A stretch of DNA of 64,000 nucleotides, from assembly GCA_965213765.1 (NCBI GenBank), contig OZ243926.1, positions 2,370,971 to 2,434,970 on the forward strand, written 5' to 3'. Each line of letters begins with the position of its first letter. Position 1 is the stretch's first letter. Below the pieces are notes generated by a model. That model was not told the origin of the DNA, searched no databases, and was given only the letters and a program-made list of their open reading frames with translations. Made by a program: the position numbers and the translations under genes. Origin of the DNA: Rhodospirillales bacterium (GTDB taxonomy: Bacteria > Pseudomonadota > Alphaproteobacteria > Rhodospirillales > UBA2165). Shown here one piece after another: positions 1 to 35,355 of the stretch.

Positions 1-3000
1 AGCCGGTCCTTGACCGCGGCGAGATAATCCTCGACTTCACGGCGGGTTTCGGTTGCTTCGTCGAGTTGGGAGAGCACCTTCCCGAGCGACCGGCGCGGGC
101 GGTCTTCAAGTGCAGGGTTTTCGGCCAATACCACCATGCGGGCACGGAGTTGTTCGTAGCCGTTCACATATATGGCATGGACACCGGCCCGTTCCGCCGC
201 CGCGAGATGATCGCTCCACTCCTGCCGCAATTCCGAATAGGCATCCCACGCGATATCCTCTTTCGTAGGCGTGGATGGTTCCTCCACGGACGGTGCCGAC
301 AGCACTGGCGGGGTTTGTACACCGGGCTCCCGACCGGCCGGCACGGCAACGGTTTCAAGCGGCGGTACGCCCTCGCGCGTCCCCTGGCGCCCCCCGGGCT
401 TAAGCCCTTGTTGTTCGGCTTCCTTCTTAATCCGAAGCACATGGCGCATGGTGGCCGCGCGCCGGTGGCGCCGCGCCCGGGTATGGAGGTTCTCGAATGC
501 GTCGAGGTCCCTGCGTCCGATACCGCCCTGCTCCGCCAGCAGGGATGCGAAGTCGTCCGGCCGGGCGCGGAAGGCTTCGGCCTGCTTCAGCAACACCGCA
601 TGGCGGGCGAGGGTCTCGCTGTAGGCTTCGCCGAGCGCCACCGCATCGCCTTCAATGCGGGTCCGTTCGCGGAGGAAGTCGTAGGCCGCCAGAACCTGCC
701 TGCGGCCGTCGGCGAACGAAGCGACCGCCTGGGTATGGCGCCAGCCGAAGGCGGTGCGCCGGACATCCCGCGCGATGCGGGCCAGCGCGTCGCCGGTCGC
801 CGCTGCGGGGTTATCACCCGCCCCGCCTCGGGATTGGCCGGGGGCTTCGCCCCGGACATCGCCCCGGGATTCACCAAGGGAACGGCTTTCGTCCTCCCGG
901 ACATTCTCCCGGATATCTTCCCATACGCCATCGGCCATGTAGTCGAGCGCCGCCTCCTTGGGCTGCGAGCGCGACCAGCGTTCGGCAAGGTATTCCCTGA
1001 TCTCGGTATCCGTCACCGCCGCTTCCCGGTCGTCATCGGCCCGCCGGTCGGCGATATCGAGGGCGAGCGGCGCCCGGTTGACATATATGTCCAGTGCCTC
1101 GCGATGGCGCGTAGCCGCCGGATAGATGGTTTCCCGCGAGGGCCGCGCATCGGCCAGCAGGAACGTCCGGTCCACGGTCAGCCCCTGGGCGGACGTGATG
1201 GTCAGCGCATAGCCGTGGTCGAGACGGATATTGCCGTACCAGTCGCGGATCTCGTCGTGGCGGAATGATACGGACCGCCCGTCCTCGGTGCGCGCCGTTA
1301 TCAGGACACCCGGCTCCGCGCCGGCCTCGGCTTTTTCAACCTTAAAGTCGTCGACCGTGACCACGGTGCCGTTGAACAGCTGCTTCTCCCAGTGCGTCGC
1401 GCCGATGCGCAGGCAATCGCCGCGCATGATCTCCAGCGGCGAGGTCGCCCGGTCGTCCTCCATGCCCCTGCTGACCATCACCGTCACCCCCAGGTCACCA
1501 AGCGAAGCTCGGTCAATTCGGGACGAAATGACCTTAACTGACCGCTCTCCACCCTGCCGGTCCGCGAACCGGCGTTCCCGCATCAGATGGGACAGCGCCC
1601 GCACCTCGGCCCGGGTGCGCGCCAGCACCACGGCGGACTTGCCGGGGTTGGCCCGCCGGTAGCGGTCCCAGTCGTCGACCAGGCGGGTCAGCGTGTTTTC
1701 CTCGTCATACCCCATATGGAACCGCCCGCGTAGATGATGGGCCTCAATGGCCGATGCCGCATCGCCGTCGCGCAGCGCCTCCGATGCCGCCACCTGCCAC
1801 GGCGTGAATACGGGCTTGTCCTCCATCGCCTCGTATTCGGCGACAATACGGGCGCGGTCCCGCTCCGCCATCGAACCCGCCAGGAGGAGTGCTTTCTCAG
1901 GCGTCTCGCCATGGACGTGAACCAGGATGTCCTCCAGGTCCGCCTTCTGGCGCCGTATGCGGTCCACCCGGACACTGCCGACGGCGTCACGGATCAGCCT
2001 CAGCCCCGGTCCCGCCCCGACGGGCTGCTGTTGCTGGGTATCGCCGGCGAAGACGATCTTCGCCCCATGACGTTCGGAGAGCTGGAGAATGTGATGCGCC
2101 TGGCGGGTCGACAGCATCCCCGCCTCGTCGACGATGATGGTGGTGTCTCCATCGATCTCGATCCCGCCCCGCGCGGCAAGGCGCAGCAGCTTGTCGACGC
2201 AGAACGGGCGCGCATCGACGTCGTTGCCGAGCGCCACCGCGGTGCGCCAGGCGACCGCCGTGGCGATGATGCTCCGCCCGTGTTCACGGTAGAGATCGGC
2301 GATGGGACGCAATGTCGTGGTCTTGCCCGAGCCCGCCGCCCCCTCGATGATGGCGACCCGGCCCGCCGATGGTGGGTCGGTCAGTCGCTTCGCTTTGTGA
2401 CCTGAGGTCAGTCGCTTCGCTTGGTGACCTGATGTAACATACCGGATCGCATTTATCTGTTCCGCGCTCAGCGGATAGCCCGCTTCCAGCAGCCCCGTCA
2501 CCTTTGCGTCGATAGCCCGGGCGGGCAGCGATTGTCCCGTGTCGTCGGCCATATCTTCAATGCCGCCCGGACGCACCGGGACGGCCATGCGCTCCGCCAT
2601 CTCCCTGACTTTCATCTCCATTTCCAGGTTGTGACGGGTTGAATACAGCCTTGTATGCGCCATGTCGGCCCGGCCCTCGGCCGAACGCGGCGGGCGGGTC
2701 AAGCGCACCACCTCCGGGCTCAGCAGGACACGCTCGATGCTGGTCGCCACCGCATCCCGGTTTAGCAGCCCGGCCGTGGCATTGCCCACCCGCTCGACGA
2801 TGTCGGGAAGACGGAATACCGCTTCCTCGCGGGTCAGGCGGTCGGGCAGGTCTTCCAGGACCTCCGTCAGCGCCCGGACCTGCTCTTGGGTCGTCTCTTC
2901 CGCCGTGCCCAGGAGCGAGGCGATCAACAATTCGCGCTCGACATACCCCTCCGCTTCGCGGCGCCAGCGGGCGTGGCGGATCTCCGGGTCGTTGTCCGGC

Positions 3001-3893
3001 GACTTGCCGGCCCGGGTGATCTTGTTGGCCGCCGCCGCACGCGGCGCGTTGCCCTGGACCGTGAACCCCATCTCCCGGGCCGCGTCGATAATCGCGGCGC
3101 GGCGCTTCGACCAGTGTCCCGTCAGGTCCCCGGGCATGCCGGCGATGCGGGTGAACCTCAGGTCACCAAGCGAAGCTCGGTCAATTCGGGACGAAATGAC
3201 CTTAACTGACCGCCCGTCCCTGCCATACTGCTCCATGAGGATGCCCAGGCGTTCCCGCAGGCTCCAGGCCAGCGCATTGCGGTAGACCGCCCCCGCCGCC
3301 TTCATCCAGCTGTAGGCCGGGTGCTGGTGCAATGCCCGGTACCTGCCGTCCCGGTGTGTCCGGGCGGCATTGAAGATCACGCAGTGGGTATGCAGCTGCG
3401 GGTCGTTGTCCCGGCTGGTTCCATGCTGGAACATGGCCGCCGATATGTCGGCGGGCAGCACCTCGATCTCGCCCGCCCTGCTGCGGATGCGGGTATAGGC
3501 GCAGTGACGCAGCACCGTCTCCTCGAGTGCTGTCCGTGCCGCATCGTTATGCGCCCGCTCGATCTCCGAACGCAGTTCCGGATCGGCGACGGCCCACAGG
3601 GCCGAGACGCTCTTGTCGGCGCTGAACGTCATGTCGAGACCCGCGGACCGCCGCTCGCTGCCGGCGTTCTGTGTGAGCTTGTCTCCGGTGTCCGGCGCGA
3701 AACCGTTATACAGCCGGTGGAAGTCCGCGCTGTCGACCCTGCTGCCGTCAACAAGACCGAACAGGCCCTTCGGATTGAACCAGACGCCGTCCGGTTCCTC
3801 TCCCGCCGTATAGTACTCGTTGGGATGCCGGAAGGAGCGCTGGTTCTCCAGGTAATAGGCCGCCGATGCGGCCTGGGCCAGGGTGGCTACCAT
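1..3893 (-). CDS. TrwC-family (MOBF) conjugative relaxase fused to a RecD-like helicase; the 3' end runs off the left window edge, which is why it is absent from the ORF track
   Basis: Own minus-strand translation from ATG 3893: MVATLAQAASAAYYLENQ... Relaxase motifs LDMTFSADKSVS and HGTSRDNDPQLHTHCVIFN; Walker A GAAGSGKTT near 2310-2340; IIVDEAGM Walker B. The frame stays open to position 1. Confidence 0.9.
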   Translation of the reverse strand, partial: MVATLAQAASAAYYLENQRSFRHPNEYYTAGEEPDGVWFNPKGLFGLVDGSRVDSADFHRLYNGFAPDTGDKLTQNAGSERRSAGLDMTFSADKSVSALWAVADPELRSEIERAHNDAARTALEETVLRHCAYTRIRSRAGEIEVLPADISAAMFQHGTSRDNDPQLHTHCVIFNAARTHRDGRYRALHQHPAYSWMKAAGAVYRNALAWSLRERLGILMEQYGRDGRSVKVISSRIDRASLGDLRFTRIAGMPGDLTGHWSKRRAAIIDAAREMGFTVQGNAPRAAAANKITRAGKSPDNDPEIRHARWRREAEGYVERELLIASLLGTAEETTQEQVRALTEVLEDLPDRLTREEAVFRLPDIVERVGNATAGLLNRDAVATSIERVLLSPEVVRLTRPPRSAEGRADMAHTRLYSTRHNLEMEMKVREMAERMAVPVRPGGIEDMADDTGQSLPARAIDAKVTGLLEAGYPLSAEQINAIRYVTSGHQAKRLTSGHKAKRLTDPPSAGRVAIIEGAAGSGKTTTLRPIADLYREHGRSIIATAVAWRTAVALGNDVDARPFCVDKLLRLAARGGIEIDGDTTIIVDEAGMLSTRQAHHILQLSERHGAKIVFAGDTQQQQPVGAGPGLRLIRDAVGSVRVDRIRRQKADLEDILVHVHGETPEKALLLAGSMAERDRARIVAEYEAMEDKPVFTPWQVAASEALRDGDAASAIEAHHLRGRFHMGYDEENTLTRLVDDWDRYRRANPGKSAVVLARTRAEVRALSHLMRERRFADRQGGERSVKVISSRIDRASLGDLGVTVMVSRGMEDDRATSPLEIMRGDCLRIGATHWEKQLFNGTVVTVDDFKVEKAEAGAEPGVLITARTEDGRSVSFRHDEIRDWYGNIRLDHGYALTITSAQGLTVDRTFLLADARPSRETIYPAATRHREALDIYVNRAPLALDIADRRADDDREAAVTDTEIREYLAERWSRSQPKEAALDYMADGVWEDIRENVREDESRSLGESRGDVRGEAPGQSRGGAGDNPAAATGDALARIARDVRRTAFGWRHTQAVASFADGRRQVLAAYDFLRERTRIEGDAVALGEAYSETLARHAVLLKQAEAFRARPDDFASLLAEQGGIGRRDLDAFENLHTRARRHRRAATMRHVLRIKKEAEQQGLKPGGRQGTREGVPPLETVAVPAGREPGVQTPPVLSAPSVEEPSTPTKEDIAWDAYSELRQEWSDHLAAAERAGVHAIYVNGYEQLRARMVVLAENPALEDRPRRSLGKVLSQLDEATETRREVEDYLAAVKDR
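1491..1545. repeat. Long form (54-55 nt) of a short palindromic repeat, inserted in frame in the relaxase gene
   Basis: caggtcaccaagcgaagctcggtcaattcgggacgaaatgaccttaactgaccgc is identical to 3159-3213. Nested ggtca/tgacc inverted motifs. Encodes RSVKVISSRIDRASLGDL on the coding strand. Confidence 0.9.
2379..2432. repeat. Two tandem 27-nt short-form copies of the same repeat, in the opposite orientation, in frame in the relaxase gene
   Basis: ggtcagtcgcttcgcttKgtgacctga x2. The reverse complement equals the two termini of the 54-nt element (tcaggtcaccaagcgaagc..ctgacc) with the central 30 nt missing. Encodes SGHQAKRLT SGHKAKRLT just upstream of the Walker A motif. Confidence 0.85.
3159..3213. 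repeat. Second long-form copy of the repeat, in frame in the relaxase domain
   Basis: 55/55 identity to 1491-1545. It sits between ..MEQYGRDG and RFTRIAGMPGDL.., a segment that reads as contiguous once the 18 codons are removed. Confidence 0.9.
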
Positions 3894-4347
3894 GCGACTG
3901 ACCGACCCGGGTCACATGGCCGGATTATGATTGTTTCGGCTCTCACAATTCGGGCCTTGGAAGTTCCTATATTTTACAGAGGCTTACCGAAACGGCTGTG
4001 CGGTATTCACAAACCGGGGCAAAGCTCATTACTTTCATCGAAGTCAGCGCACCGGGGTGCAGAGGTGTGCGCCAAGAAAGAAACTCCGTTCTCCTTTTGT
4101 TCGCATAGAGCATACGCATATAAGGGGAGACCGCAAGGGGTTTGGGGCCGCTTCCATGTTGGCGTGTTCGCTTGGCATTCGAAGCATCTCCTCGCAGTTG
4201 CACTCGGGGAAGGTTTGGAAGGCGGGCGGACCGTCGTGGCCGGCGTTATGGTTTGCCAAGACTCCTACGATTTGGAACGATGATCGGATAGCCGACGACC
4301 ACATCCGGGCCTGATCGCGGATACCGGAACCAGCGGGGAGACCGACG
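3894..4347. promoter_or_regulatory. Divergent intergenic region; putative oriT and promoters
   Basis: About 450 bp with visibly lower GC, between the divergently oriented relaxase gene and a small gene. Contains short inverted repeats (gacccgggtc near 3903; gcgcac..gtgcgc near 4049-4075). No nic site could be recognised. Confidence 0.35.
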
Positions 4348-4650
4348 ATGCCGGCAAGACGTTTCAACGAAGCGGATATCGACTTCGACGCAATAGACGG
4401 CGAATTGGCGAAACTCGCGCCGCCAAAGCTGAGCCTGGCGGATGTGCTGGAGCGGCTGCGCAAGCGGCTGGTCGAGCAACAGGCCAAGGGCGTTACGGTG
4501 GCTCAGATGCGTGAGGTGTTGAACGCAAACGGTATCGCTATCACGGAGCGCAGTCTGCGGACGTTCCTGACCAAGGGGGTGTTGCCGGGAAGGAAGGTTG
4601 CCGAGGCCGCACGGTCCATGGTCTCGGAAGAAGGCAAGGATCCGTTCTGA
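4348..4650 (+). CDS. Small hypothetical protein, possible relaxosome accessory or DNA-binding protein
   Basis: 100-aa ORF divergent from the relaxase gene, with coding-like composition and a GC-rich hairpin just downstream (about 4668-4690). Function is inferred from position only. Confidence 0.5.
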   Translation: MPARRFNEADIDFDAIDGELAKLAPPKLSLADVLERLRKRLVEQQAKGVTVAQMREVLNANGIAITERSLRTFLTKGVLPGRKVAEAARSMVSEEGKDPF

Positions 4651-4835
4651 ACCGGGCGCCGGCGGGGCGCTTCAGCGCCCGCGTTCGGCGATGGCGCGAA
4701 GCGCCGAGCGTGAGCCCGCATGGTTGGCGGCGGCGATGCATCGTTCGAAGAACGAGGAGCCGCCGGCGAGCGTAAGCTCGCACAATTGGCGGTGGCGCGA
4801 GGCGCCCCGTCATGGGCCGTGACTTTATGCACCTG

Positions 4836-4881
4836 GCAAAATAAAAGGCCGGCCTCCGCCGTGTGATGGCGGGGACCGGCC
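4836..4881 (-). terminator. Strong intrinsic terminator-like hairpin on the minus strand
   Basis: ggccggcctccgcc / ggcggggaccggcc 14-nt stem (one mismatch, one GU pair), 7-nt loop, followed on the minus strand by ttttatttt. Confidence 0.5.
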
Positions 4882-5562
4882 CTGGACGGTGCCGATTTTC
4901 AAGCTACCAGATTGGTAGCTGTCATCTGCCAGCGCATGCCGCTGGAGCGCCCTCTTTCGGATTGAGGATACGCGCTCTGGCGGCGGAGCGGGCCGGTCCG
5001 TGTTGCCCGGATAAGTCAATGCCTTGATTTTCCACGCTCTTCACGGCGCGCTGTAGCGGCGGGGCCTGGCGCGCTGTAGCGGCGGACTATTTCCGGCACG
5101 ACAGGGATACGCAAAATCAACAACCTGCGCAGCCCATCGCAGTCAGTCGCAGCCTCCGCTATGACCGCAGAGGAACTGCGTCAGGTGTGACGAAACGCCG
5201 CTCCGCGGTCCAGAAGGCTAAAAGCGTGCAGCGATGTTCATGGGGGCATCGACGCCGTCGAAGACGGCGGAGGGGAGCCGCCACGGTGATTAAGTGGCGG
5301 CTGGTGCGGACACTGCCATGGGTCGGCGTGTCGAACGCGGTGACGGCGGGCTCGTTGGGAGCGCCGTCACGAGTGCCGCGAGCGGTGCGCCGGGATCGGC
5401 GAACAACCGCGAGCGGCGAGCGACAGCGAGCCGGAGCACGAGCGCGGCGCGAAGCGCGCGCGAGGACGGCGTCGCCGCGCCACCGGTGTGCGAAGGAAGA
5501 AACGGGCCGCGCCGCCACCTCCCGTTGCCGGGGATGATGACGCGGCCCGCGAGGCGGTGCGG

Positions 5563-6495
5563 TCAGGCCGCACACCGGGCGACCGGGATACCGAGGGTGC
5601 GCGCCTTGTCGACGAGGTTCTCGGTGATGCCGGAGCCGGGGAACGCGATCACGCCCTTCGGCAGGAGGTTGAGCAGTTCGTCGTTGCGCCTGAACGGGGC
5701 GGCACGGCCGTGGCGGTCCCAGTCCGGCTTGCAGACAACCTGGTGGACACCGTTGCGCTCTGCCCAGCTTGCCGCGATCTTCTCGACGCCGGGACCGCCG
5801 CCATGGACAAGGACGATGTCGGCGCACTTCGCCTTCGCCGTGTCGAGGCGCGCGATCACCGCGGCCGGGTCGGCGACGTCCCTGCCGCCGGCGATGGCGA
5901 CGAGGGTGCCCTCGGGCAGGTGCGCTTGCGTCTCGCGGTCCTTCCTCGCGCGGATGAAGTCGCGGGCATCGATGCTGGCGGCGGTCAGCTTGCCGGTCTG
6001 CGAGACGTGGCTGCCGTGACGCGGGCGCCAGACCTCGCCGGTCTCGCCGCGGTACTGCTCGGCCACGGCGTCGCGCATGGTCTCGAAGGCGTCGCGGCGG
6101 TCGCCGAGGCTCCGCGCGCGGTCGGTGACGAGTTCGAGTTCGCGCGACTTGATCTCGGAGCCGTCCTGGGCGCGCTGGAGGTCGCGCAACTCCGGGCTGA
6201 GCCGGTCGACGGAGCGGTCGAGGCGGCGGACCTGGGCGTCGAGGCAGTTGACGAAGCCCCAGAGCAGGCTCTCGCGCTCGTCGGCCAACTGGAACCCGTC
6301 CGGGCAGGCGCCCCCGGCGATGATGCGGAAGGCCTCGGCGACGGCGTCGGTGGCGCTGTCGGGGTCCCATACCTCGCGGGGGTCGAACTCGTCCCGCTCG
6401 GGGGTTGCGCCGTAGAGGGCGGCGTTCTCGCAGATTGTCGCGGTGACGGACTGCCCGGCGGTCTCGATGGTGTCGATGTTCTCGATGGTGGTCAT
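5563..6495 (-). CDS. DUF2493 (SLOG/YspA-like) domain protein typical of conjugative elements
   Basis: Start MTTIENIDTIE preceded by an AAGGAG RBS. C-terminal IVLVHGGGPGVEKIAASWAERNGV..KPDW..HGRAAPFRRNDELL matches the recalled DUF2493 signature. Confidence 0.75.
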   Translation of the reverse strand: MTTIENIDTIETAGQSVTATICENAALYGATPERDEFDPREVWDPDSATDAVAEAFRIIAGGACPDGFQLADERESLLWGFVNCLDAQVRRLDRSVDRLSPELRDLQRAQDGSEIKSRELELVTDRARSLGDRRDAFETMRDAVAEQYRGETGEVWRPRHGSHVSQTGKLTAASIDARDFIRARKDRETQAHLPEGTLVAIAGGRDVADPAAVIARLDTAKAKCADIVLVHGGGPGVEKIAASWAERNGVHQVVCKPDWDRHGRAAPFRRNDELLNLLPKGVIAFPGSGITENLVDKARTLGIPVARCAA

Positions 6496-6868
6496 GACGA
6501 TCTCCTTGATGATCGGGTTGCAGCGATCGGAGCGTTGCGCCCCGAAGTGATGTCCTGTTGGGAACCGCGCGCGCAGCGGAAGCACCTGGCCTTGGAAGCT
6601 CTTGGGGCGGAGTGGTGCGGAAAGTCGTCGAGTGGTGCGGAAGATCGCTCCGCGATCTTCACGGTCGGCGGCTTTCACGGTCCGCCCTTAGAGCTTCTTC
6701 GGCCAGGCCGTAGGGAGCCCGGCGACCGGAGGACCCCGGAGGGGTTGCTGTAGCGAGCACGTGGATCACAATTGGACAGCACGAAGGATGGGCTATTTCT
6801 TTCCACCCGCACCGGCCCCATCGGCGGTTCGGCCTGGCACATCGTTGAAAGGGAGGCACGGCGGCGCC

Positions 6869-7204
6869 TCACGCATCGGACCGCTCCGCCAGAACCCCGG
6901 ACGCCCATTCCGCGGCGCGGGCCAGAACATCGCCGTGGCAGGGCAGCGGCTCGCACCAGCAAGCCAGCCAGCACCCGTCCAGTTCGGCCAGTTCTTCCAG
7001 CGGGACCTCGCCCGCGCGGATGCGCTCCCAGAGATGGACGCGGTAGCGGGCAATAACCTGCTCGCGGTCGCCGTCGGCTCCCAGCCTGAACGGATTGCGC
7101 CACTTGGTGCGGCGGTCGATCAGCACGGTGTTGTCGACGACGTGGGCATATTCGAACGCCTCGCGCAGCTTCGGCTCGTGCTTCAGGTTGATGATGGCTC
7201 TCAT
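6869..7204 (-). CDS. DUF4326 domain protein
   Basis: MRAIINLKHEP..RTKWRNPF..ARYRVHLW..LDGCWLACWCEPLPCHGDVL; GGAGGAG RBS upstream of ATG 7204. Confidence 0.7.
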   Translation of the reverse strand: MRAIINLKHEPKLREAFEYAHVVDNTVLIDRRTKWRNPFRLGADGDREQVIARYRVHLWERIRAGEVPLEELAELDGCWLACWCEPLPCHGDVLARAAEWASGVLAERSDA

Positions 7205-7363
7205 GGACTCCTCCTCGTGTCGGCTCGCCCGATCTTCCGCTCTCCTTTTCCTCCAGTTGGCGGGCACGATGACCGTGGCGGCGACGGCCGCCCGCGCCCG
7301 CATCGCGGCCCGCGCGCAGCGCCGGGCGAGATACCCGGCCGGGAAGAGGCTCCAGGTGGGCAG

Positions 7364-7394
7364 CAAAAAAAGGCCGGCGCGCGAGGCGCCGGCC
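7364..7394 (-). terminator. Rho-independent terminator downstream of ssb
   Basis: ggccggcgc gcgag gcgccggcc hairpin, with a plus-strand A-run that gives a T-run after the stem on the minus strand. Confidence 0.65.
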
Positions 7395-7422
7395 CAGTTG
7401 GGGAGGAACGATGACGGGTCGA

Positions 7423-7857
7423 CTAGAAAGGAATATCGTTGTCATCTGCCGTCGTGGCGGCCGGCGCGCTCTCGCCGTTCGCCGCCGGCGCACCATTTCC
7501 GTTCGGCTTGTCGAGGAACTGTACCCTGCCGCCGGGAACCAGCAGGATCTCGGTCGAGAACCGGTCCGAGTCCTCGCCGTCCTTGCGCCACTTGCGGGTC
7601 TGCAGCTTGCCCGAGACGTAGACCAAACGGCCCTTCTTGGCGTGCTTCTCCATCATCTCCACCAGGCCGTCCTGGAAGGTGACGACCCGGTGCCACTCGG
7701 TGCGATCCACTTTGTCGCCCGAATTTTTGTCCAGATAGCTTTCGTCGGTCGCGATCGAAACGTTGGCCACGCGGCCGCCGTTGGTGAGATGGCTGATGGT
7801 GGCGTCGGCGCCGAGGCGTCCGATCAACTGTGCGTTATTCAGTCCGAACATGATCAA
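7423..7857 (-). CDS. ssb: Single-stranded DNA-binding protein
   Basis: OB-fold N-terminus (LIGRLGADA..WHRVVTF), Gly/Ala/Pro-rich linker, and the canonical acidic tip DDNDIPF. Confidence 0.95.
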   Translation of the reverse strand: MIMFGLNNAQLIGRLGADATISHLTNGGRVANVSIATDESYLDKNSGDKVDRTEWHRVVTFQDGLVEMMEKHAKKGRLVYVSGKLQTRKWRKDGEDSDRFSTEILLVPGGRVQFLDKPNGNGAPAANGESAPAATTADDNDIPF

Positions 7858-7975
7858 TCTCCTATGATCCGGGTTATGACATCTGGTTGGTGAACGGGGT
7901 CAGGCCTCTCTCGACCCTTCCCCCTTCATCCTTCTCCAAGCCTTCCTCGTCCTCTTTTCAGCTGCCCGCGCCGGT

Positions 7976-8149
7976 TCAGTCCTGGGAGCCGAGAACCTCC
8001 CGGATCGCATGGGCCGGCAATCCGGCCGCGGCCAGCAATGTGCCGGCGTCGGGAAGCGGTGCGGCGAGGCCGGGATCAACATCTTTTGTGTCGGCGGGAT
8101 TGAAAGGGATGTCGTTGGACTCGGTCGGGCCATGAATGGAATCGAACAT
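7976..8149 (-). CDS. 57-aa hypothetical small protein (below the ORF-track cutoff)
   Basis: Own translation MFDSIHGPTESNDIPFNPADTKDVDPGLAAPLPDAGTLLAAAGLPAHAIREVLGSQD, with GGAGA 6 nt upstream of the ATG. Lies immediately upstream of ssb on the same strand. Confidence 0.35.
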   Translation of the reverse strand: MFDSIHGPTESNDIPFNPADTKDVDPGLAAPLPDAGTLLAAAGLPAHAIREVLGSQD

Positions 8150-8365
8150 CGGGCATCTCCGGTTGATGGGGTTGGGACGCCCCCCGGAGGGAACTCTCTT
8201 TTCCCTTGGGCGCGTCGCCCTTCTCTTCGCCTTCCCCTAACTCTCCCGCACGACGGTCGGGGCAGGCCGGAGAGTTGGCGACATGGCATGTCCGGGGGCA
8301 TCGCAGGGCGGCAGCCGTTGGCGCGCCGGATGTCCGATTGTGCCCGGCAGGGGCTGCGCGGGTTG

Positions 8366-8620
8366 TCAGCGCGCCGCGTCGTCGGCGTCCATGATGGCGA
8401 TGACGGCGTCGTCGAGGCCGCCCCTGGCGCCCATCAGAGTGTTCTCGGGATGGAGAAGCCGGTGGCGGAGCCCGGCGCGGTCGTCGCGGGACGCGCCGCG
8501 ATAGCATCCGGCGCGGATCAGTGCAGGGTGCCGCCGGTCGGGCCGCCGGCGCCGGCAGCGGGCGGCGAATGTGGTCCAGGCGGCGCGGTCGAGGCCGAGC
8601 GCCGTGAAGCTGAAAACCAT
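8366..8620 (-). CDS. Hypothetical protein
   Basis: 84-aa ORF co-oriented with its neighbours, with a weak RBS. No family recognised. Confidence 0.3.
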   Translation of the reverse strand: MVFSFTALGLDRAAWTTFAARCRRRRPDRRHPALIRAGCYRGASRDDRAGLRHRLLHPENTLMGARGGLDDAVIAIMDADDAAR

Positions 8621-8874
8621 GCTTCCGGGATCGATCCCGATGATGCTATCCTGATCCGTGGACGCCTTCTCCTTCTGTTGGTGTTTATCACCCTACCAAC
8701 ATGGCACATAGTGGGATGCCGTCTGGAGGAGGCGTCCACCACATCGGATCTGCGGCAGTTCGTCCTCGCCGGCGTGCGGATGGAAGCAATAAGCCGGGTC
8801 GTCGGGCAGGGTGCTGCCGGTCGGACCGGCCGCGCGGCAGGCCGCCCCCCGCGGAGGGCTGCGAGGGAATGCGG

Positions 8875-9243
8875 TCAGTCGGTCTCGGACACGGCGACGC
8901 GCAGCCGGCCGCCGGTGGGAGAGCGCGGCTGGCGGATAACGATGTCGATATCGCGGTTGAGAGCAATCAGGAGCCCCAGCAACCGCTCCAGCGAATACTC
9001 CCGGATATCTCCGCGGAGCAGACGGGAGATTTCGGGCTGGGAGAGGCCGAGCAGCCGTCCCGCTTCGGCCTGGGTGAGGTCGCGCTGCCGGATGATATCG
9101 TCGATGCGGGCGACCAGCTCGGCTTTCACGATGTGCGCGTCGGTGTCCGGGAGGTCGGGATCGGCGGAGATGTCGCCGCCGCCGGGTTCGATGGGAATGT
9201 CGGATACGGTCATGGGACGAGCCTCATTCATGGGTGTCGCCAT
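8875..9243 (-). CDS. XRE-family helix-turn-helix regulator (antitoxin-like)
   Basis: LTQAEAGRLLGLSQPEISRLLRGDIREYSLERLLGLL is a typical HTH_XRE / HigA2-like C-terminal domain. Confidence 0.8.
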   Translation of the reverse strand: MATPMNEARPMTVSDIPIEPGGGDISADPDLPDTDAHIVKAELVARIDDIIRQRDLTQAEAGRLLGLSQPEISRLLRGDIREYSLERLLGLLIALNRDIDIVIRQPRSPTGGRLRVAVSETD

Positions 9244-9403
9244 CGTGATGCGTTACAACCTCCAGCACGCCGGTACCGAAGTCCCGGAGCGGCTTGAGTA
9301 CATAGGGGACTGTGAGCATAATAAACCCACCCCCATATATTTACACTCCCCCTTCCCATATATGCTAACAGAATTTGAAACTTGTTCGTGGAGAACCGAT
9401 GAC

Positions 9404-9943
9404 ATGAAAAAACAACGGCTCATCCAATCGACATGGGATGAATTCTCGAGAAAATTTGCCAAGCGGCAAAGACTACCTCTAGGCACCGAGTTGCACCTGT
9501 ATGATGGCAGTGGCAGAAAGAAGCGCTCGGACTGGCAGGTCAAATGGAAAAAGGTCGATTCAGTACCCAAAGCCGCCGAGAACGAGACCGTGCACAGTTT
9601 GCTCCAAACGGCGACCAAATTGCTTTCGACCGACATCAAAGCTCGCCGTTTGAAAATCCGTTTGGTGTGCCCACAAGGGGTTCGGATACAGGGCAACACG
9701 CAGGTAGGGACTGTCCGCAAGTTACGTCGTCACCGCACAGGAGACGAGCTTGAGGAAGAAGCGCAACGAGAACTGGAAATTAAGCACCTTCGTCGAGAAA
9801 CGGGAAAGGTCGCAAGCAACGAGATCAATGAGGCTGAATACCTCCTTGAAGACCCTGAAGAGGTAGTTCCCCACGCTTACGTGTCGGCGCTGTGCGAGCG
9901 TTACGGACGCGAGCGTATCGAAGGAGCATTGGAAGCCGTCTGA
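9404..9943 (+). CDS. Hypothetical 179-aa protein in a low-GC pocket
   Basis: ATG 9404 with GTGGAGA upstream (MKKQRLIQSTWDEF...). It is the 3' part of the spurious 644-aa ORF 8009..9943. Divergent from the XRE gene. Confidence 0.6.
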   Translation: MKKQRLIQSTWDEFSRKFAKRQRLPLGTELHLYDGSGRKKRSDWQVKWKKVDSVPKAAENETVHSLLQTATKLLSTDIKARRLKIRLVCPQGVRIQGNTQVGTVRKLRRHRTGDELEEEAQRELEIKHLRRETGKVASNEINEAEYLLEDPEEVVPHAYVSALCERYGRERIEGALEAV

Positions 9944-10105
9944 GACGTGGTGGTGCTATATCCGGACACTGATTGGCCTTGTTCATTGGCTACCGACATT
10001 CTTGGTGGGAGCTCCTGCGGTGGGGCGGGACCGGTAGCCGGCCGGAGGGCCATACGCATGTCGGAACGGGCTGGAGTGTCCGTTGCCGGCAGACGACGGG
10101 CCGGC

Positions 10106-11158
10106 TCACCAGGGCGGTGCGATCATCGCCGCCATGGGACTCGCGTTGCACAGCACCTCGACCTCGTCCCGCGCCAGCTTCTCGAAGGCGAGGCAGAGCG
10201 CGACATCGGCCTCGCTGTCATAGGTGCCGAGATCCCGGCCGGTGGCGATCTCGATCACCGTCCAGGTGGGATCCCAGACCGGGATGCCTTGGAATGCGCC
10301 CGAGCTCTCCCGGTGCCTGCGCGAACAGGGCTCGCAGCGCGCCACCCCCGGCGATGGCGCATTGCAGGCGACGCATCGGCCTCGGGCCTTCCGGTCGGCA
10401 TAGCGGGCACGCTTGGCGGCGTATTCCGCCTCTCTGTCGCGGCGTTCCTCCTTGGCCACGGCGCAAGGGCCGCAGTAGGTGGCGCCGCCATAGGTAGGGG
10501 TTTGGCACTTGACGCACACCCCGGCGGCCCGTCGGGCATCGTAGCGGGCGCGGGCGACCTCGCGGCAGGCCCGGCACTCGGCCGCCCCGTGGGCCGGCTT
10601 GCCGCATGATGTGCATGCGGCGCGGGCGCGCCGCTCGGAATATCTGCGGCGGTCGGCGTCGCGCTTCGCCTTGAGGTTCCGGCGCCTGGAGCGGGTCTTG
10701 GCGCAGGGATCGCAATAGGCCTTGCCGCCGGGCGCGGGCGTCGCGCACTGGACACACAAACCAGCAGCCCTGCGTTCGGCATGGAGAGCGCGTTTCGCGG
10801 CCCGGCGGTCCTCGCGGCAGGTTTCGCACATCGACCGGCCCTCCTCGGGCGGGACATGCCCGCAGCGGACGCATAACCCGGCGGCCCGGCGGGTCTCGGC
10901 CCGCCGGAGGCTGCGCTTCCGACCGGCCAGGCGCCGGGCTTCCGGGTCGCGTCCGCCATATGGGATCCCCTCGGCCTTTGCCCTGGCGTGACGGGCGCGG
11001 TCCCCGGCCCGGTGCTTCCCGGCGCAGGGCTCGCAGGTCGTGCGCCCGGGTCGTGCGGGAGCTTTGCACTTGGTGCAGATACCGGCGGCCTTGCGCCGGG
11101 CGACACGCTCGCGGTCGCGGTCGCGCTGACGGCGAACCTTGGGGTCCCGATAGGCCAT
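10106..11158 (-). CDS. Protein with six tandem CxxC-X7-11-CxxC zinc-ribbon repeats plus a unique C-terminal domain
   Basis: Start MAYRDPKV with a GGAGG RBS. Repeats of the form RRAAG(L/V)C(V)xC..P....G...C.xC followed by Arg-rich linkers. Confidence 0.75.
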   Translation of the reverse strand: MAYRDPKVRRQRDRDRERVARRKAAGICTKCKAPARPGRTTCEPCAGKHRAGDRARHARAKAEGIPYGGRDPEARRLAGRKRSLRRAETRRAAGLCVRCGHVPPEEGRSMCETCREDRRAAKRALHAERRAAGLCVQCATPAPGGKAYCDPCAKTRSRRRNLKAKRDADRRRYSERRARAACTSCGKPAHGAAECRACREVARARYDARRAAGVCVKCQTPTYGGATYCGPCAVAKEERRDREAEYAAKRARYADRKARGRCVACNAPSPGVARCEPCSRRHRESSGAFQGIPVWDPTWTVIEIATGRDLGTYDSEADVALCLAFEKLARDEVEVLCNASPMAAMIAPPW

Positions 11159-11322
11159 TGGCCGCCTCCATGGATAAGAAAATGAGGAAGTGTGGACGCC
11201 CGGTCGCCGGCCCAGCCCTCCGCGCAGCTGCGGGATGTCCCGAAGCCCGGGAGCCGGGACAGGCTTCACCACGAGCCGGAGGCCGGACAACAGGATGTCC
11301 GTAGGCCGGGAAAGGGGGGCGG

Positions 11323-11649
11323 TCAGCCCTTCTGGCGGCGGTCGTGGAACAGGCCCGAGGCGATGTCGCCCCAAATTTGGACGCCGCCCCGGGTCTTCAG
11401 CCCGGTGCAGACGATGATCTCGGTGCGCGCGGGACGCAGTTCCTTCACCGCCTTCAGCGTCGCGGTGACCGCCTTCGCCTTGCGGCGCCTGCCGCCCTTC
11501 GGTGTGTCCGTGCAGCGGCGAATGTTGCCGTCCGCCATCGCCCGGTACCGCTCGATCACATAGCGGTCGTCGTCGGCCAAGCCGGGTCCGAAGATATGGG
11601 TTAGGAAAGTCGCCGCCGTGTTGCCGGGTATCGCCAGTGCTGCCGTCAT
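11323..11649 (-). CDS. Hypothetical protein
   Basis: MTAALAIPGNTAATFLTHIFGPG.. with a GGAGA RBS; co-oriented with the zinc-ribbon gene. Confidence 0.45.
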   Translation of the reverse strand: MTAALAIPGNTAATFLTHIFGPGLADDDRYVIERYRAMADGNIRRCTDTPKGGRRRKAKAVTATLKAVKELRPARTEIIVCTGLKTRGGVQIWGDIASGLFHDRRQKG

Positions 11650-11828
11650 GGGGCCGTCTCCATCTTGCCGATGAGGGAAAACGCGGCCGGACGCCCTCCC
11701 CCGGGCATCCAACCGCCGCCCCGCTCACGGCCGAGGCTCTCCTCTCGGCGGCGCGGGGCGAAGGTTTGCGCCCTGGGGGTCGTATTCCATGACGGCAACG
11801 GGCCGTCGGCGCTCGCGGCGGCAGCGAC

Positions 11829-11892: not shown

Positions 11893-12086
11893 TTGCGCAC
11901 GTTCAAGACCAAGCCTTTCGCGCGCTTCGCCAGTCGCGAGGGGATAACCTCCGGGGCGGCGAACTCGGGGCGCTGAAGGCGCTGGCGGACCGGTTGCTCG
12001 GACTGGACTGGCCGGGCCTGGAAGCGATGCTGGCGAACGGAACGATTAGCGAGGTGAATTGCGATGCCCAGACAATACGGGAGTGA
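11893..12086 (+). pseudogene. Decayed RelE/ParE-superfamily toxin (internal deletion plus frameshift)
   Basis: The frame starting TTG 11893 gives LRTFKTKPFARFASREGIT.. then a stop. A second frame gives ..ELGALKALADRLLGLDWPGLEAMLANGTISEV. About 50 central residues of the family are absent. Confidence 0.6.
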
Positions 12087-12381
12087 CGTGCTGGCGTCGG
12101 TGCATGAGACCGCGCTCGGAATGACGGAGGCGGGCGTCATGTCGAAACGGACGATGAAGGCGTTCGACGAGATGTGTCTGACACCGGTCGAGGACATGGC
12201 ACCGGAGCGGATTCGCGAGATCCGGCTGCGCGAGAACGCGAGCCAGGCGGTGTTCGCGCGCTACCTCAACGTGACGAAGGGTCTGGTTAGTCAATGGGAG
12301 CGTGGCGAGAAGCACCCGCGAGGCGCCTCCTTGAAGCTCCTGACGCTGGTGGCGAAGAACGGCCTCGGGGCGGTCGCCTGA
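12064..12381 (+). CDS. HTH antitoxin (MqsA/YiaG-like DNA-binding protein)
   Basis: ..MSKRTMKAFDEMCLTPVEDMAPERIREIRLRENASQAVFARYLNVTKGLVSQWERGEKHPRGASLKLL.. Overlaps the end of the toxin remnant. Confidence 0.8.
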   Translation: MPRQYGSDVLASVHETALGMTEAGVMSKRTMKAFDEMCLTPVEDMAPERIREIRLRENASQAVFARYLNVTKGLVSQWERGEKHPRGASLKLLTLVAKNGLGAVA

Positions 12382-12496
12382 CGGACATCGGCCGGCGGGT
12401 CGCCGTGTTGCGACAGTGTTGATACGCGACATGAAAAACCCTGCACACCGAAAATAATACAATAATTACAGCATATTATGGTCTAGAGAATCTCCT

Positions 12497-13015
12497 TCAT
12501 GAATGTTCAAGAAGCATCCGCCGAAATGGCTCAAGAGCACCGCGAAATCCGACGACGTCCTCATCGCGTCCCGCCTGCGCCTCCTCAAGGCTGCACCCAA
12601 GACGGGCCTCGCGGGTCCGGCGGTAGTGTTCCCGGTCATCCGGGTGTACATGGTCCAATACGTCCCTGGTAATCAACGGCAGGAGTACCGGGTAGAGTGC
12701 GGCCGGCACCCAGGCATTGAGGAAACTCGCAAGCGCCCAACTTCCGCGGTCGGGAAACAACAAGCCTTCGGACGGCCAGACCCGCTCGAGATAATTGGCG
12801 ATTTCCCAGCTGTCGCACACGACGGAATCGCCATGTTTCAACACCGGCGCCAACCGGTAATCGGTCCAACCCTCCAGAGCGGATTTGTCCAGAAACGTCG
12901 TACCGACGACCTCGTAGTCCAGCTTCTTATGCGCCAGGGCCAGTTTCGTGCGCCAGACGTAGGGGCTGAACCTGAAGTTGTCCCGGCCGAGAAAATCGCA
13001 GAGCGTGATTTGCAA
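12497..13015 (-). pseudogene. Glutathione S-transferase family gene, apparently 3'-truncated
   Basis: A GST N-domain plus part of the C-domain. It ends at ..LEPFRRMLLEHS, where family members normally continue for about 50 more residues. An AT-rich junction follows at 12382-12496. Confidence 0.6.
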
Positions 13016-27860: not shown

Positions 27861-28010
27861 CCAGCCTGTTCGATCTGAACCGGACGGAAGAGGCGCTCGC
27901 GACCTGCGACCAGGCGATCGACCGGTTCGGGCAGGCGACACCACGCTCACCGCCAGCTTCCTTCCGGCCCGGCCGGTTCCGCCGTGCGCGAAGCCCAAAG
28001 ACCGGGCGCG

Positions 28011-28505
28011 CTAGCGCTGCCAGGTGCAATCGGCCCGGGTGACGAATAGATCGTTCGTCAGGTAATCGGCTTCGTATGAGCACGAACCCGTGACGCCTTC
28101 GAACCTGCCGGTCCCGCCCAGCATTTCGAGGCGTCCCGCGCCGCCTCCGCCCTGGGCGACGTCACCCGCGCTTCTCCTCGAATTCCAGAACTGCTTGTCG
28201 CCCGAGGGGTCCGTCGCGGTGCAGGACGCCCCGAGCTCGGTGCCCGCGGCCGAACTCTTTCCGTGTACGATGCACGTCACCCGGCTGGATCCCCCCTCGA
28301 TGAAGGGTCCGCCGCTGCTCCTGACGATGGTGCTCGTACCCTCCGAGGCGCCGCCGAAGATCGTTCCGCCCATGTGGGCGATCGTGGTGTAACCGCCGGT
28401 CATGCTCGAAACCGATGTGAAGCTGCCGGTTTCGGCGGCGGCCGGGCCGGCGCACACGATCCCGATGGAGATGAACAGCACCGTAATTCCCCTGCTGAAC
28501 GACAT
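28011..28505 (-). CDS. Secreted hypothetical protein
   Basis: MSFSRGITVLFISIGIVCAGPAAAETG.. signal peptide; Gly/Ser/Thr-rich with four Cys; GAGGA RBS. Confidence 0.55.
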   Translation of the reverse strand: MSFSRGITVLFISIGIVCAGPAAAETGSFTSVSSMTGGYTTIAHMGGTIFGGASEGTSTIVRSSGGPFIEGGSSRVTCIVHGKSSAAGTELGASCTATDPSGDKQFWNSRRSAGDVAQGGGGAGRLEMLGGTGRFEGVTGSCSYEADYLTNDLFVTRADCTWQR

Positions 28506-29082
28506 GGCGTTGGTCCTCGGTCTGTTGGAAGTGGTATGTCGATGGTAAACCAATAACCCGGATCCATCACGACGATTTCCGATGTGATTTTTTCGTTTTT
28601 GGCTCACGTCGCTCGATTTCCGGCACACATTTTCCAGTTTTGGGCGCAGCCAGGATTTTGGGGAGGACATAGTCGCGCGTTTTCAATTTATGCGGCATAT
28701 TTTGTGCCGCCTGGACGTGTTTGAGTGACCCCCGCCTGGGAGTTTCTGGATTTCCGGGTTTTCAGGGAAGAGGGCGCTTACGTGGGAGCGAGGGCCCGCC
28801 ATGCGGTGAAGAAGTCGTCTTTGTATGGATAGGCGTCGGGCACCATTGCATAGCCACGGTATTTCATATAGAAGGCGTGCCGTCGCTGGAGGCGCGATAT
28901 TTTATGCATTCGGCGGCTTTTTGGTCGTCGGCAATGGTTGGGGAAACCATGACGGGCATGTTGACGAAGCCGCTGGCCGGCCGGAATGACATGGCTTGCG
29001 GCGATTTTGTTGAGTCGCTCTGCTGCGGCGCAAGAAACTTGCGGCATCTCTTGACATTGGCGGCGGGTGAGGCGGATAAAAT

Positions 29083-29122
29083 GAGCCGCCGAGCCGCCGA
29101 GCCGCCGAGCCGCCGAGCCGCC
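29083..29122. repeat. Octanucleotide tandem repeat (GAGCCGCC)x5
   Basis: Five perfect head-to-tail 8-bp units read directly from the sequence. Confidence 0.95.
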
Positions 29123-29494
29123 GGCGATGAGTCCGTCCGGCCCGCGGCGGGGCCGGTTACGCCGATGGATATGCCCGCCTGAGTTTGCGCGAACCGTTGC
29201 GGACGGGCCGCATCCGGCCGCCAACCCGGTTCCTCCGCCAGCCTCGAACCCTCCTGCCATTGCAGGCCGGCAGTCCGATCAGCCGCCTCGACGACATTCT
29301 CCAAATGCCTTTCGGGCAGGCGCTGGCCCGCACCCCCGACGCTTCATCCTTACTGCCCGGCGGTAATGGGTTTGCGCTATATGCCGCCGCGCGGCGGAAG
29401 CGGAGCGCCTCGGCTCCGCGGATGGCGCGGCCTCCTGTCGGCAGCCTTCAGGGCCTGTCATGCCCTTGTCCCTGCGGCTCCTAAAGGTGGGCAG

Positions 29495-31345
29495 GCCAAC
29501 ATCACGTTTACCGACGCCACTATCACCATCAATGACGATGACGCGGCGCCGAGCGGCATCACGCTGAGCGTGGACACCAACGGTTCGACCTCGGGCACGC
29601 CGAGCACGGTGGCGGAGGACGCCGGGGCCACGGTGGTCACGGTAACGGCGACGGTGAACGGCACCACGCGTTACGTGGACGCCAAGACCGTGGCGGTGAG
29701 CGTGGATGACGGCACCGCGGAATCGCCCGCCGATTATGCGGCGGTGAGCGGCTTCAACATCACGATTGCCGCGGGCGCGGCCAGCCAGAGCGGCAGTTTC
29801 ACCGTGACGCCGGTGGACGACGACCTCGACGAGGCCAACGAGACGATCGACGTCACCGGCACGCTGACCGACATCACGATCACCGCCGCGACGGTGACGC
29901 TGACCGACACCGACGACCCGGTGAGCTTCTCGATCGCCGATGCCGAGGCCACCGAGGGCGGCAAGGTGGAGTTCACGGTGAGCCGCGAAGGGGCCGGGGA
30001 CAACGTGGCGTCGGTGAAGGTGACCACGGCCACGGACAGCGGCGATGGGGCCGATGCCGCCGATGCGGACGACTACACCGCCATCGCCACGGCGCAGACA
30101 TTGAACTTTGCCAAGGGCGTCGCCAGTCAGACGGTGGAGGTGCAGACCACGCAGGACGACCTGTTCGAGCCGGACGAGACGTTCAAGGCGGTCCTGAGCG
30201 CCCCGGCGCTTGGGGAGAACGACCCCGGCACCGGGGTGAGCATTGAGTCGGGCAAGGGCACGGCCACGGGGACAATCAAGAACGACGACACCGAGCCGTC
30301 GTTTGCGGTGGCGGACGCCAGCGCGTCGGAGGGCGATGCCATCACCTTCACGGTGACCCGCTCCGGGGCGATGGACAACGCGGTGTCGGTGAAGTGGAAC
30401 ACCAAGGCGGCGACCGGGGCGGGCGCGGCTTCGATCAGCGATTACACCGCTGTGACGGCGCCGGCGACGCTGACCTTCGCCAAGGGCGTGAGCAGCCAGA
30501 CCTTCACGGTCGCCACCACGGAGGACACGCTGGATGAGGGCAACGAGACCTTCCTGGTGGAGCTGACCGGGGCGGTGGGCGGCACGATTGCCACGGCCGA
30601 GGCCACCGGCACCATCAATGACGATGACGCGGCGCCGAGCGGCATCACGCTGAGCGTGGACACGAACGGTTCGACCGCGGGCACGCCGAGCACGGTGGCG
30701 GAGGACGCCGGGGCCACGGTGGTCACGGTGACGGCGACGGTGAACGGCACGACCCGCTACGTGGATGCCAAGACCGTGGTGGTGAGCGTGGATGACGGCA
30801 CCGCGGAATCGCCCGCCGATTATGCGGCGGTGAGCGGCTTCAACATCACGATTGCCGCGGGCGCGGCCAGCCAGAGCGGCAGTTTCACCGTGACGCCGGT
30901 GGACGACGACCTCGACGAGGCCAACGAGACGATCGACGTCACCGGCACGCTGACGCCCACCGATGACGACCTGCACGAGGGCAGCGAGACGATTGACGTT
31001 ACCGGTACCTCGAACGCGCTCACCATCACCAAGGCTTCGATCACCCTTGAAGACGACGACGCTCAACCGTCGTTTGCGGTGGCCGACGCGAGCGCGTCGG
31101 AGGGCGACGCGATCACCTTTACGGTGACCCGTAGCGGGGCGATGGACAACGCGGTGTCGGTGAAGTGGAACACCAAGGCGGCCACCGGGGCGGGCGCGGC
31201 TTCGACCACCGACTACACCGCGATGCCCACGGCGACGAAGCTGGATTTCGCCAAGGGCGTGGGCAGCCAGACCTTCGCGGTCGCCACCACCGAGGACACG
31301 CTGAACGAGGCCAACGAGACCTTCCTGATAGAGCTGACCGATCCC
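29495..31345 (+). pseudogene. Calx-beta repeat adhesin-like gene fragment (both ends missing) with a 1086-bp internal tandem duplication
   Basis: Repeated ..ADYAAVSG..ITIAAGAASQSGSFTVTPVDDDLDEANETIDV.. and ..DYTA....L.FAKGV.SQTF.V.TTEDTL.E.NETF.. units. No signal peptide. Blocks 29528-29868 and 30614-30954 are near-identical. Confidence 0.8.
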
Positions 31346-31485
31346 GTCGGCATCACGGTGAGCACGTTGCGGCCGGCCAGGAGCGCCTCGATGGCCGCTT
31401 CCTGGCCCGGCCGGAACCCGTCGAACCCAAATACATCCCTCAGCACCTGGCGTGCGGCGGCTGTCGGTTCCTCCAACGTGCGCAT
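31342..31485 (-). pseudogene. RecQ helicase N-terminal stub (about 48 aa)
   Basis: MRTLEEPTAAARQVLRDVFGFDGFRPGQEAAIEALLAGRNVLTVMPTG, then the homology stops where the Calx-beta fragment abuts. Confidence 0.6.
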
Positions 31486-31528
31486 CAGTGCCGAAACCGG
31501 GAGAGGTCAACCAGGGATCAGGCGGAGA

Positions 31529-31813: not shown

Positions 31814-32033
31814 GATGTGTGGCCTCTTTGTTTTCCGAACCGAAACTGTCTCACAAGGCCGCTACATATAGTGGCCTCATGCCTGTGTGTATACTATAAA
31901 CGGCTCCAGGTTGCATATGATCGCGGCTCCCTGTTCGAACCGCGCGGCTGGGCGGTAATGCAGGAAGCAGCCACGGCGGCGTTTCTCCAAGGAAGCCGCG
32001 CACCGGATTCGCGTGCTTGAAGAACTATAGCGG

Positions 32034-34104: not shown

Positions 34105-34147
34105 TCATCGTCTCCCAGCGACAGCGGGATGTTACAAATTGCGCCCA

Positions 34148-35329: not shown

Positions 35330-35355
35330 GGCGCACAGTACCGGATGATCGCGCA

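Follow-up and report, generated by a model that had tools for sequence, protein, structure and literature searches.

The window analysed here, a stretch of 64,000 nucleotides from a Rhodospirillales bacterium (contig OZ243926.1, positions 2,370,971 to 2,434,970 of the forward strand), contains a gene, here called ZnR, for a protein of six predicted Cys4 zinc-knuckle units and a C-terminal domain. ZnR is a real, conserved gene. Judged by its sequence, it represents an undescribed family, in which a known kind of module occurs in a new arrangement and with a restricted ecology. We tentatively propose that ZnR is a polyvalent, zinc-dependent nucleic-acid binder that helps the incoming DNA of its mobile element to establish, and we give this reading somewhat less than an even chance. 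At present ZnR is an uncharacterised conserved hypothetical protein for which such a role is plausible. The parts of the gene are as follows.

10106..11158, minus strand: ZnR gene, 350 codons and a stop; six predicted helix / Cys4 zinc knuckle / helix units, then the C-terminal domain
11165..11169, minus strand: ribosome-binding site GGAGG, 6 nt 5' of the ATG at 11158
11024..11077, minus strand: putative zinc unit 1, residues 28-45, CTKC...CEPC; orthologous to unit 3 of the 8-unit reference
10817..10873, minus strand: putative zinc unit 2, residues 96-114, CVRC...CETC
10703..10756, minus strand: putative zinc unit 3, residues 135-152, CVQC...CDPC
10565..10615, minus strand: putative zinc unit 4, residues 182-198, CTSC...CRAC
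10463..10516, minus strand: putative zinc unit 5, residues 215-232, CVKC...CGPC
10325..10375, minus strand: putative zinc unit 6, residues 262-278, CVAC...CEPC; adjoins the C-terminal domain and is never lost
10109..10303, minus strand: acidic, family-specific C-terminal domain, residues 286-350, predicted beta-beta-alpha-beta-alpha

The original prediction, made from the sequence of the window, had placed a 350-aa protein of six units at 10106-11158, and this was borne out by translation of the minus strand and by a pattern search. With the zinc unit defined as CxxC-X(9-11)-CxxC, ZnR contained exactly six units, matching the sequences quoted earlier. The N-terminus MAY.DP is common to the homologs. 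A longer in-frame open reading frame (ORF) reaching 11866 was rejected as the start of ZnR because the homologs begin at MAY.DP; a start as far up as 11866 is also contradicted by an independent conserved gene that occupies 11323-11649. A word-indexed search of 5.8 billion proteins, in which 8000 candidates were scored, returned 587 relatives at E<=1e-3, the best of them 87-90% identical. An exhaustive HMMER scan of 1.84 billion representatives at 50% identity gave 2099 matches at E<=1e-3, 311 at 1e-10 and 50 at 1e-30. The pairwise ratio of nonsynonymous to synonymous substitution rates (dN/dS), calculated with 13 orthologs, was 0.26-0.34 against the closer ones and up to 0.50 against the most distant, and the repeat region and the C-terminal domain had similar values. 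These ratios indicate that ZnR is under purifying selection. A lack of conservation, which would have spoken against the original prediction, was not found: there are hundreds of homologs and dN/dS is below 1.

ZnR has 26 Cys residues, 24 of them within the units. Its 63 Arg and 18 Lys residues stand against 41 Asp and Glu residues (net charge +40), which confirms the 24 unit cysteines and the very high positive charge described earlier. The charge is divided unevenly: the repeat region (residues 1-285) has +47 and the last 65 aa have -7. The consensus of a unit is R-[RK]-A-[AR]-G-x-C-x-x-C-x(2-3)-P-x(2-3)-G-x(3)-C-x-[PAT]-C, after which comes an Arg-rich stretch, and R[RK]A[AR]G stands ahead of each ZnR unit. 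The earlier description of six CxxC...CxxC repeats held, and that of repeats of an equal 40-45 aa did not, since the unit lengths are 68, 39, 47, 33, 47 and 30 aa (range 30-68 aa) with uneven spacers. The four Cys columns were invariant when 29 units from 7 homologs were aligned, and among 45 full-length homologs most Cys positions were invariant or at least 90% conserved. Because the Cys columns are invariant and dN/dS is low, the unit pattern is, on these alignments, not due to chance. The same pattern suggests that ZnR binds zinc.

The AlphaFold2 model of ZnR, built from a 45-sequence alignment, had a mean predicted local distance difference test score (pLDDT) of 85 and a predicted template-modelling score (pTM) of 0.40. 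The model is confident within each module and leaves undefined how the modules are placed relative to one another; the low pTM fits flexibly linked modules. Each unit follows one order in its predicted secondary structure. The conserved Gly marks the end of an alpha-helix; next comes a two-residue beta-bridge pair with the first CxxC, and the second CxxC lies at the start of the following helix. Because the first CxxC follows the end of a helix and the second opens the next, each putative zinc site would staple two successive Arg-rich helices together, end to start. As modelled, the unit appears closer to a treble-clef than to a classical two-hairpin ribbon.

A unique C-terminal domain of about 65 aa had also been described, and residues 286-350 indeed gave no significant family or fold match. 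In the AlphaFold2 model its beta-beta-alpha-beta-alpha arrangement spans residues 296-346. The domain carries the motif GIPxWDPxWTVIE...G.(Y/F)DSE.(D/E)(V/I)ALCLAF, and the family's best-conserved motifs (GIPxWDPxWTVIE, G.(Y/F)DSE and ALCLAF) sit here. All inspected proteins with this domain either have ZnR units or are frameshifted fragments. A Foldseek search with the domain alone (model pLDDT 73) gave best E values of 1.8 against PDB and 0.07 against viral models. The proteins matched among the viral models are small, come from phages and are uncharacterised (one has the label DUF2188); none of the matches, viral or PDB, was significant.

The earlier statement that ZnR is not a described family agrees with searches of Pfam, NCBIfam, PADLOC, PHROGs and PDB and with Foldseek. 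In Pfam, DZR (17.8 bits against a gathering threshold of 27.3) and DZR_2 (16.5 against 27) stayed below threshold; a few relatives have a DZR_2 match that is precomputed or just at threshold (P0041; P0246). NCBIfam and PADLOC gave no ZnR match. PHROGs gave a single weak match to the 49-position model phrog_19644, 'DNA binding protein' (E 0.0044). The best PDB hit of the protein sequence and of a 47-column unit profile was a RING/PHD finger (E 0.048), which is a generic knuckle likeness. Foldseek on the AlphaFold model, a check proposed with the original prediction, returned no significant match for the full protein (best E against PDB 2.7). Literature searches turned up nothing on such a protein, and 'hypothetical protein' is the sole name for ZnR proteins in any source. 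Apparent fusions of ZnR to tyrosine integrase, DDE transposase, DruA/Mom-like or LolA-like domains are unlikely to be true architectures. The fusion-like metagenome ORFs (P0157, P0217, P0262 and P0171) are probably chimeras at the junctions of insertions into ZnR genes. Exact-sequence look-ups of the gene context of P0001 and P0003 were empty.

Variation in repeat number had been suggested as a further check, and the homologs were found to have 4-8 units, 7 being the most frequent. When each unit was classified against an 8-unit reference, the units proved to be position-specific orthologs rather than homogenised beads. The window copy consists of units 3-4-5-6-7-8. Its relatives consist of units 2-8 or 1-8, or are without some of units 4-7 (all of 4-7 in one). 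Unit 8 and the C-terminal domain were kept in every homolog classified. Compared with a 7-unit relative (L001), the window gene is missing one 210-nt unit, and the flanks of the missing unit share 41 nt of repeat homology. This overlap of the flanks gives the missing unit the sequence signature of unequal recombination between units.

ZnR lies in a string of genes on a mobile element at the left end of the window, with these features.

11683..11716, minus strand: hairpin 1, conserved and GC-rich, then a U-run; 34 nt upstream of the start of the 109-aa gene
11323..11649, minus strand: orphan 108-aa gene (the '109-aa family')
11180..11300, minus strand: hairpin 2, between the 109-aa gene and ZnR, sense-strand RNA of the GGACRUCC...GGGCGUCC type
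7423..7899, minus strand: ssb, the element's own
6869..7441, minus strand: DUF4326 gene
5563..6687, minus strand: gene for a YAcAr (SLOG) domain protein
3912-5562: largely non-coding gap of 1.6 kb between the gene string and the relaxase gene
3..3911, minus strand: gene for a TrwC-type (MOBF) relaxase-helicase, running off the window start
12477..12507, no strand: approximate right boundary of the repeated element, where single-copy chromosomal contigs start

On the minus strand the order is hairpin, 108-aa gene, ZnR, an insert of about 1.25 kb, a small ORF, ssb, the DUF4326 gene and the YAcAr SLOG gene; after the last come about 1.6 kb of mostly non-coding sequence and then the TrwC relaxase-helicase gene. 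The gene string is transcribed toward the gap at 3912-5562 and the relaxase gene away from it. Beyond about 12.5 kb lie TRAP and ABC transporter genes, and the GC content drops from 0.66-0.71 to 0.58. The host element, with a relaxase, chromosomal integration and a discrete boundary, is an integrative conjugative or integrative mobilisable element (ICE/IME).

The neighbourhood was compared across 78 related loci, taken from contigs of one genome per species, all of them metagenome-assembled genomes (MAGs). DNA similarity to the related loci covers 5250-8000 and 10000-11750 of the window and is gone in 8750-10000 and to the right of about 12.5 kb. Of the 78 loci, 61 had ssb: in 60 it lay downstream and shared the strand of ZnR, and in the remaining one it was on the other strand; YAcAr was found in 49 and DUF4326 in 33. 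On plasmids, leading regions hold SSB, anti-defence and toxin-antitoxin families that are co-oriented on the T-strand (PMC11541004), and ZnR is co-oriented with ssb, DUF4326 and YAcAr in the window in the same manner. YAcAr and DUF4326 are domains of phages and conjugative elements for which links to conflict and to NAD/ADP-ribose have been predicted (PMC7824862). The TrwC relaxase, the SSB, DUF4326 and YAcAr proteins and the co-orientation with ssb thus support the earlier description of a conjugative leading-type region. ZnR is 39-49% identical to the window copy where SSB, if present, is 55-75% and YAcAr, if present, 67-82% identical. By these values ZnR diverges faster than its neighbours, which would fit a host-interface protein.

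The phyletic distribution, another point proposed for examination, was near-exclusively that of alphaproteobacterial MAGs and metagenomes. The 78 loci belong to Alphaproteobacteria (Rhodospirillales, Paracoccaceae, Defluviicoccus and Thalassobaculaceae), except for one labelled Gammaproteobacteria. The bin names of many of them hint at sponge studies, a run labelled 'sponge metagenome' is among those holding the window sequence, and 49 metagenome loci stem from a handful of projects. ZnR homologs were absent from PLSDB plasmids and INPHARED phages (tblastn) and from the IMG/VR scan. Genomes often have five or more copies, and several loci can share a chromosome, with five each on OY763326.1 and CBDDOM010000002.1. 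In the short-read contig sets that hold the window, the summed depth over ZnR was about 5 times that of the chromosomal flank. The ZnR family is confined to chromosomal mobile elements of one ecological group.

The 109-aa gene is the closest companion of ZnR. It stands upstream on the same strand in 67 of the 78 loci, mostly at a distance of about 0.4-0.85 kb and of several kb where an element is inserted. The family has 270 homologs with a mean column identity of 79%, far better conserved than ZnR, and the invariant motif EIIVCTGL..RGG.Q.WG. The protein gave no match in Pfam, PHROG, PADLOC or the PDB-profile search. In one locus (L022, 9168-13500) two tandem pairs of the 109-aa gene and ZnR were seen on one element, each with a leader and a hairpin.

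Hairpin 2 has a stem of 15 bp, GGACGUCCUGCCGGC / GYCGGCGGGGCGUCC. Across 31 loci 93.5% of cells were paired and five pairs showed a compensatory change; U-G pairs are possible on the sense strand only. The compensatory changes and the sense-strand U-G wobbles argue for an RNA element on a transcript shared by the 109-aa gene and ZnR. In the window the loop is enlarged by an insertion or duplication, and GGACATCC is present twice. Hairpin 1 (z = -3.3, stem of 14-16 bp) lies in a leader of about 95 nt that is conserved in about 37 loci, with a compensatory change in only 2 of 8 predicted pairs, and may be a terminator or attenuator. Rfam contained no match. A covariance model of hairpin 2 found no further significant copy in the window, hairpin 1 scoring 9.5 bits. 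The idea of the same hairpin before every cistron, read by the repeats, was unsupported, with 6 copies of GGACRTCC found window-wide against 7.5 expected. An Frpo-like promoter in single-stranded DNA (ssDNA) of the spacer between the 109-aa gene and ZnR was rejected as well, the plus-strand DNA folding no better than shuffled sequences (z = -0.6).

Known systems share single traits with ZnR. E. coli topoisomerase I binds ssDNA through its tandem Cys4 zinc ribbons. Like TopA D5-D7 (zf-C4_Topoisom), ZnR has several consecutive modules, here putative Cys4 zinc modules, and the TopA ribbons are the best functional analogy for a bead-like ssDNA binder. In contrast to zf-C4_Topoisom, ZnR has no match to that Pfam family even at E<=10, and the PDB profile search gave no topoisomerase. 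The gap between the two CxxC pairs is 9-11 residues in ZnR and roughly 16-20 in topoisomerase-I-type ribbons. Unlike in TopA, the second CxxC pair of ZnR opens a long Arg-rich helix, there is no catalytic domain, and the protein has a C-terminal domain of its own. DZR (PF12773) and DZR_2 (PF18912), the only library models that touch ZnR, share the generic CxxC...CxxC knuckle; no function has been assigned to these families, and neither the Arg-helix spacers nor the ZnR C-terminal domain occurs in them. TraR/DksA proteins have a single finger, CxxC-X17-CxxC, and bind the secondary channel of RNA polymerase. ZnR resembles them in combining putative zinc fingers with long helices and in being encoded on conjugative elements, but it has no Pfam zf-dskA_traR match, contains six X9-11 units and differs in size and charge. 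ArdC and VirE2 are ssDNA binders that serve conjugative transfer; in ArdC an ssDNA-binding domain at the N-terminus is accompanied by a metalloprotease domain, and the fold of VirE2 is a different one. ZnR occupies the genomic niche of ArdC (IncW/IncN), VirE2 (Ti) and the leading-region sets (PMC11541004), beside ssb and co-oriented with it. The match of the niche includes the position of ZnR on the relaxase-distal side of a non-coding spacer. ZnR has no homology to ArdC or VirE2.

From these data a working mechanism can be drawn. The six Cys4 knuckles would clamp successive Arg-rich helices into a flexible, zig-zag basic chain (+47), and this chain of basic helices could lie along a nucleic-acid backbone. 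The acidic C-terminal domain would be the specific effector or interaction end. ZnR and its orphan partner gene would be co-transcribed in an ssb-containing string that probably enters the recipient first. ZnR may then act early after transfer, together with the SSB of the element, to coat, protect or organise the incoming DNA. We favour an early role in establishment because the ssb string matches the architecture of leading regions and because the protein has a basic, putatively zinc-stapled array. Nucleic-acid binding is suggested by the charge, the zinc modules and the neighbourhood, and we infer the timing and the establishment role. The original interpretation, a role on incoming ssDNA, is plausible but unproven.

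Several observations weigh against the favoured reading. The richness in Arg and Ala partly reflects the GC content of this stretch, which is 71%. No homology or fold match to a known nucleic-acid binder was found in Pfam, PDB or Foldseek. The placement of ZnR in a leading region is deduced from gene order and orientation. In the window, 1.25 kb of cargo with an opposite-strand ORF parts ZnR from ssb, and because of this cargo the two genes are not strictly one operon there. The read runs that contain the ZnR sequence behave like DNA, and the single putative RNA run has no reads of it. The family gene is split by a serine-recombinase element in at least 9 of the 78 loci (L017 at 6348-9998, L020, L021, L047-L049, L071, L074 and L077), and other copies are frameshifted. 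The split falls after about 92 codons (about 36 in L071) and the insert measures 3.4-3.6 kb; in L017 it carries the gene for a large serine recombinase of 692 aa (Resolvase + Recombinase + Zn_ribbon_recom) and an orphan ORF of 348 aa. Since copies are split or frameshifted, ZnR is dispensable for vertical maintenance. Such frequent disruption would also fit a function that is needed during transfer only.

The disrupted copies lead to the most sceptical explanation, that ZnR is a selfish or decaying passenger without a role for the element and is mainly a landing site for serine-recombinase and other elements. Many copies are split at the same place, the serine-recombinase element appears to target the family, and chimeric ORFs of ZnR with integrase or DDE transposase occur beside the frameshifted copies. 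Most copies are intact, however: 68 of the 78 loci have at least one uninterrupted frame with at least 3 zinc units and the C-terminal motif. The purifying selection, the invariant Cys positions and the conserved ribosome-binding site and gene order also disagree with a passenger, and we regard this explanation as very improbable. It is clearly unlikely, if less so, that ZnR regulates its own operon by binding RNA. Arg-rich helices, as in lambda N and HIV Rev, are a classic RNA-binding device. Those of ZnR would recognise the conserved, GC-rich sense-strand hairpins, and binding would control read-through of a terminator-like stem, mRNA stability or translation. Two such hairpins do lie directly upstream of the 109-aa gene and of ZnR, one with z = -3.3 and a U-run and the other with compensatory changes and sense-only U-G wobbles. 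They may be plain intrinsic terminators or mRNA stabilisers, the covariance model found no array of sites in the window to match 4-8 modules, and a protein of 350-470 aa with a charge of +40 would be rare among regulators.

The same charge and the multiple modules of a DNA-binding type could belong to a nucleoid-associated protein, silencer or transcription factor that binds double-stranded DNA and compacts or represses the element, whether integrated or newly acquired. Silencing would be useful where a genome has several copies, up to five loci per chromosome, and in relatives the gene lies near the integrase/toxin-antitoxin end. On the other side, ZnR has neither a helix-turn-helix (HTH) nor a known nucleoid-protein fold, it is strictly coupled to ssb and counter-defence-type genes rather than to integrase or regulatory modules, and its copies are often inactivated without apparent cost. 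We hold this to be as improbable as RNA regulation. The probability is lower still for an anti-defence inhibitor acting through protein-protein contacts, in which the C-terminal domain would dock onto a host nuclease or sensor and the repeats would be a tether or decoy. The string of ssb, DUF4326 and YAcAr genes is typical of conflict islands. ZnR diverges faster than the genes around it, its repeat number varies, and its best conserved part is the C-terminal domain, which no other family shares. Against these points, ZnR shows no likeness to known anti-defence proteins, PADLOC and PHROG contain no anti-defence match, dN/dS never reaches 1, and the C-terminal domain gives no hint of diversifying selection.

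Binding of incoming element DNA at establishment is the reading we prefer, and it has a wider and more speculative form. The ZnR family could be an unrecognised class of establishment or anti-defence proteins: a tunable chain of 4-8 modules that coats or reads nucleic acid alongside SSB, with an acidic end that recruits or blocks a host factor and with the orphan, highly conserved 109-aa protein as partner, specific to a heavily amplified lineage of ICE/IME in sponge-symbiont Alphaproteobacteria. We think this rather unlikely as a whole. Conjugative leading regions are now regarded as stores of functions in establishment and anti-defence, and the majority of the genes in them are uncharacterised. 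The ZnR family is abundant, forming hundreds of clusters at 90% identity. Its link to ssb is tight, and its architecture is absent from the libraries. If ZnR is a modular, zinc-stapled binder, it would be a new protein design among leading-region functions and could shed light on the spread and multiplication of mobile islands in sponge symbionts that are rich in defences. ZnR is also a clean structural target, offering six predicted zinc sites together with an end domain and a partner protein that are both orphans.

The cargo between ZnR and ssb is specific to the window and lies outside the conserved module.

8750..10000, no strand: window-specific cargo
8875-9252, minus strand: HTH_37/XRE gene in the cargo
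9404-9943, plus strand: low-GC ORF of 179 aa in the cargo, divergent from the HTH_37 gene

The 179-aa ORF gave a faint match to Cap4 nuclease only (E 0.063). The read depth of the cargo equalled that of the single-copy flank in two runs and was about twice the flank in a third. In one relative (L079, 6148-9326), two tandem tyrosine integrases (Arm-DNA-bind_3 + Phage_integrase) and an intact RelE/MqsA pair stand directly upstream of the 109-aa gene, and two further genes of the Phage_integrase type follow ssb. The window retains only an HTH remnant of the RelE/MqsA pair, at 12058-12381. A second island-like stretch was seen at 28000-38000 of the window (GC 0.63-0.66), flanked by TRAP transporter genes; it contains a 945-aa Calx-beta protein, an AAA_14/DUF4143 ATPase, a DDE_3 transposase and a tyrosine integrase.

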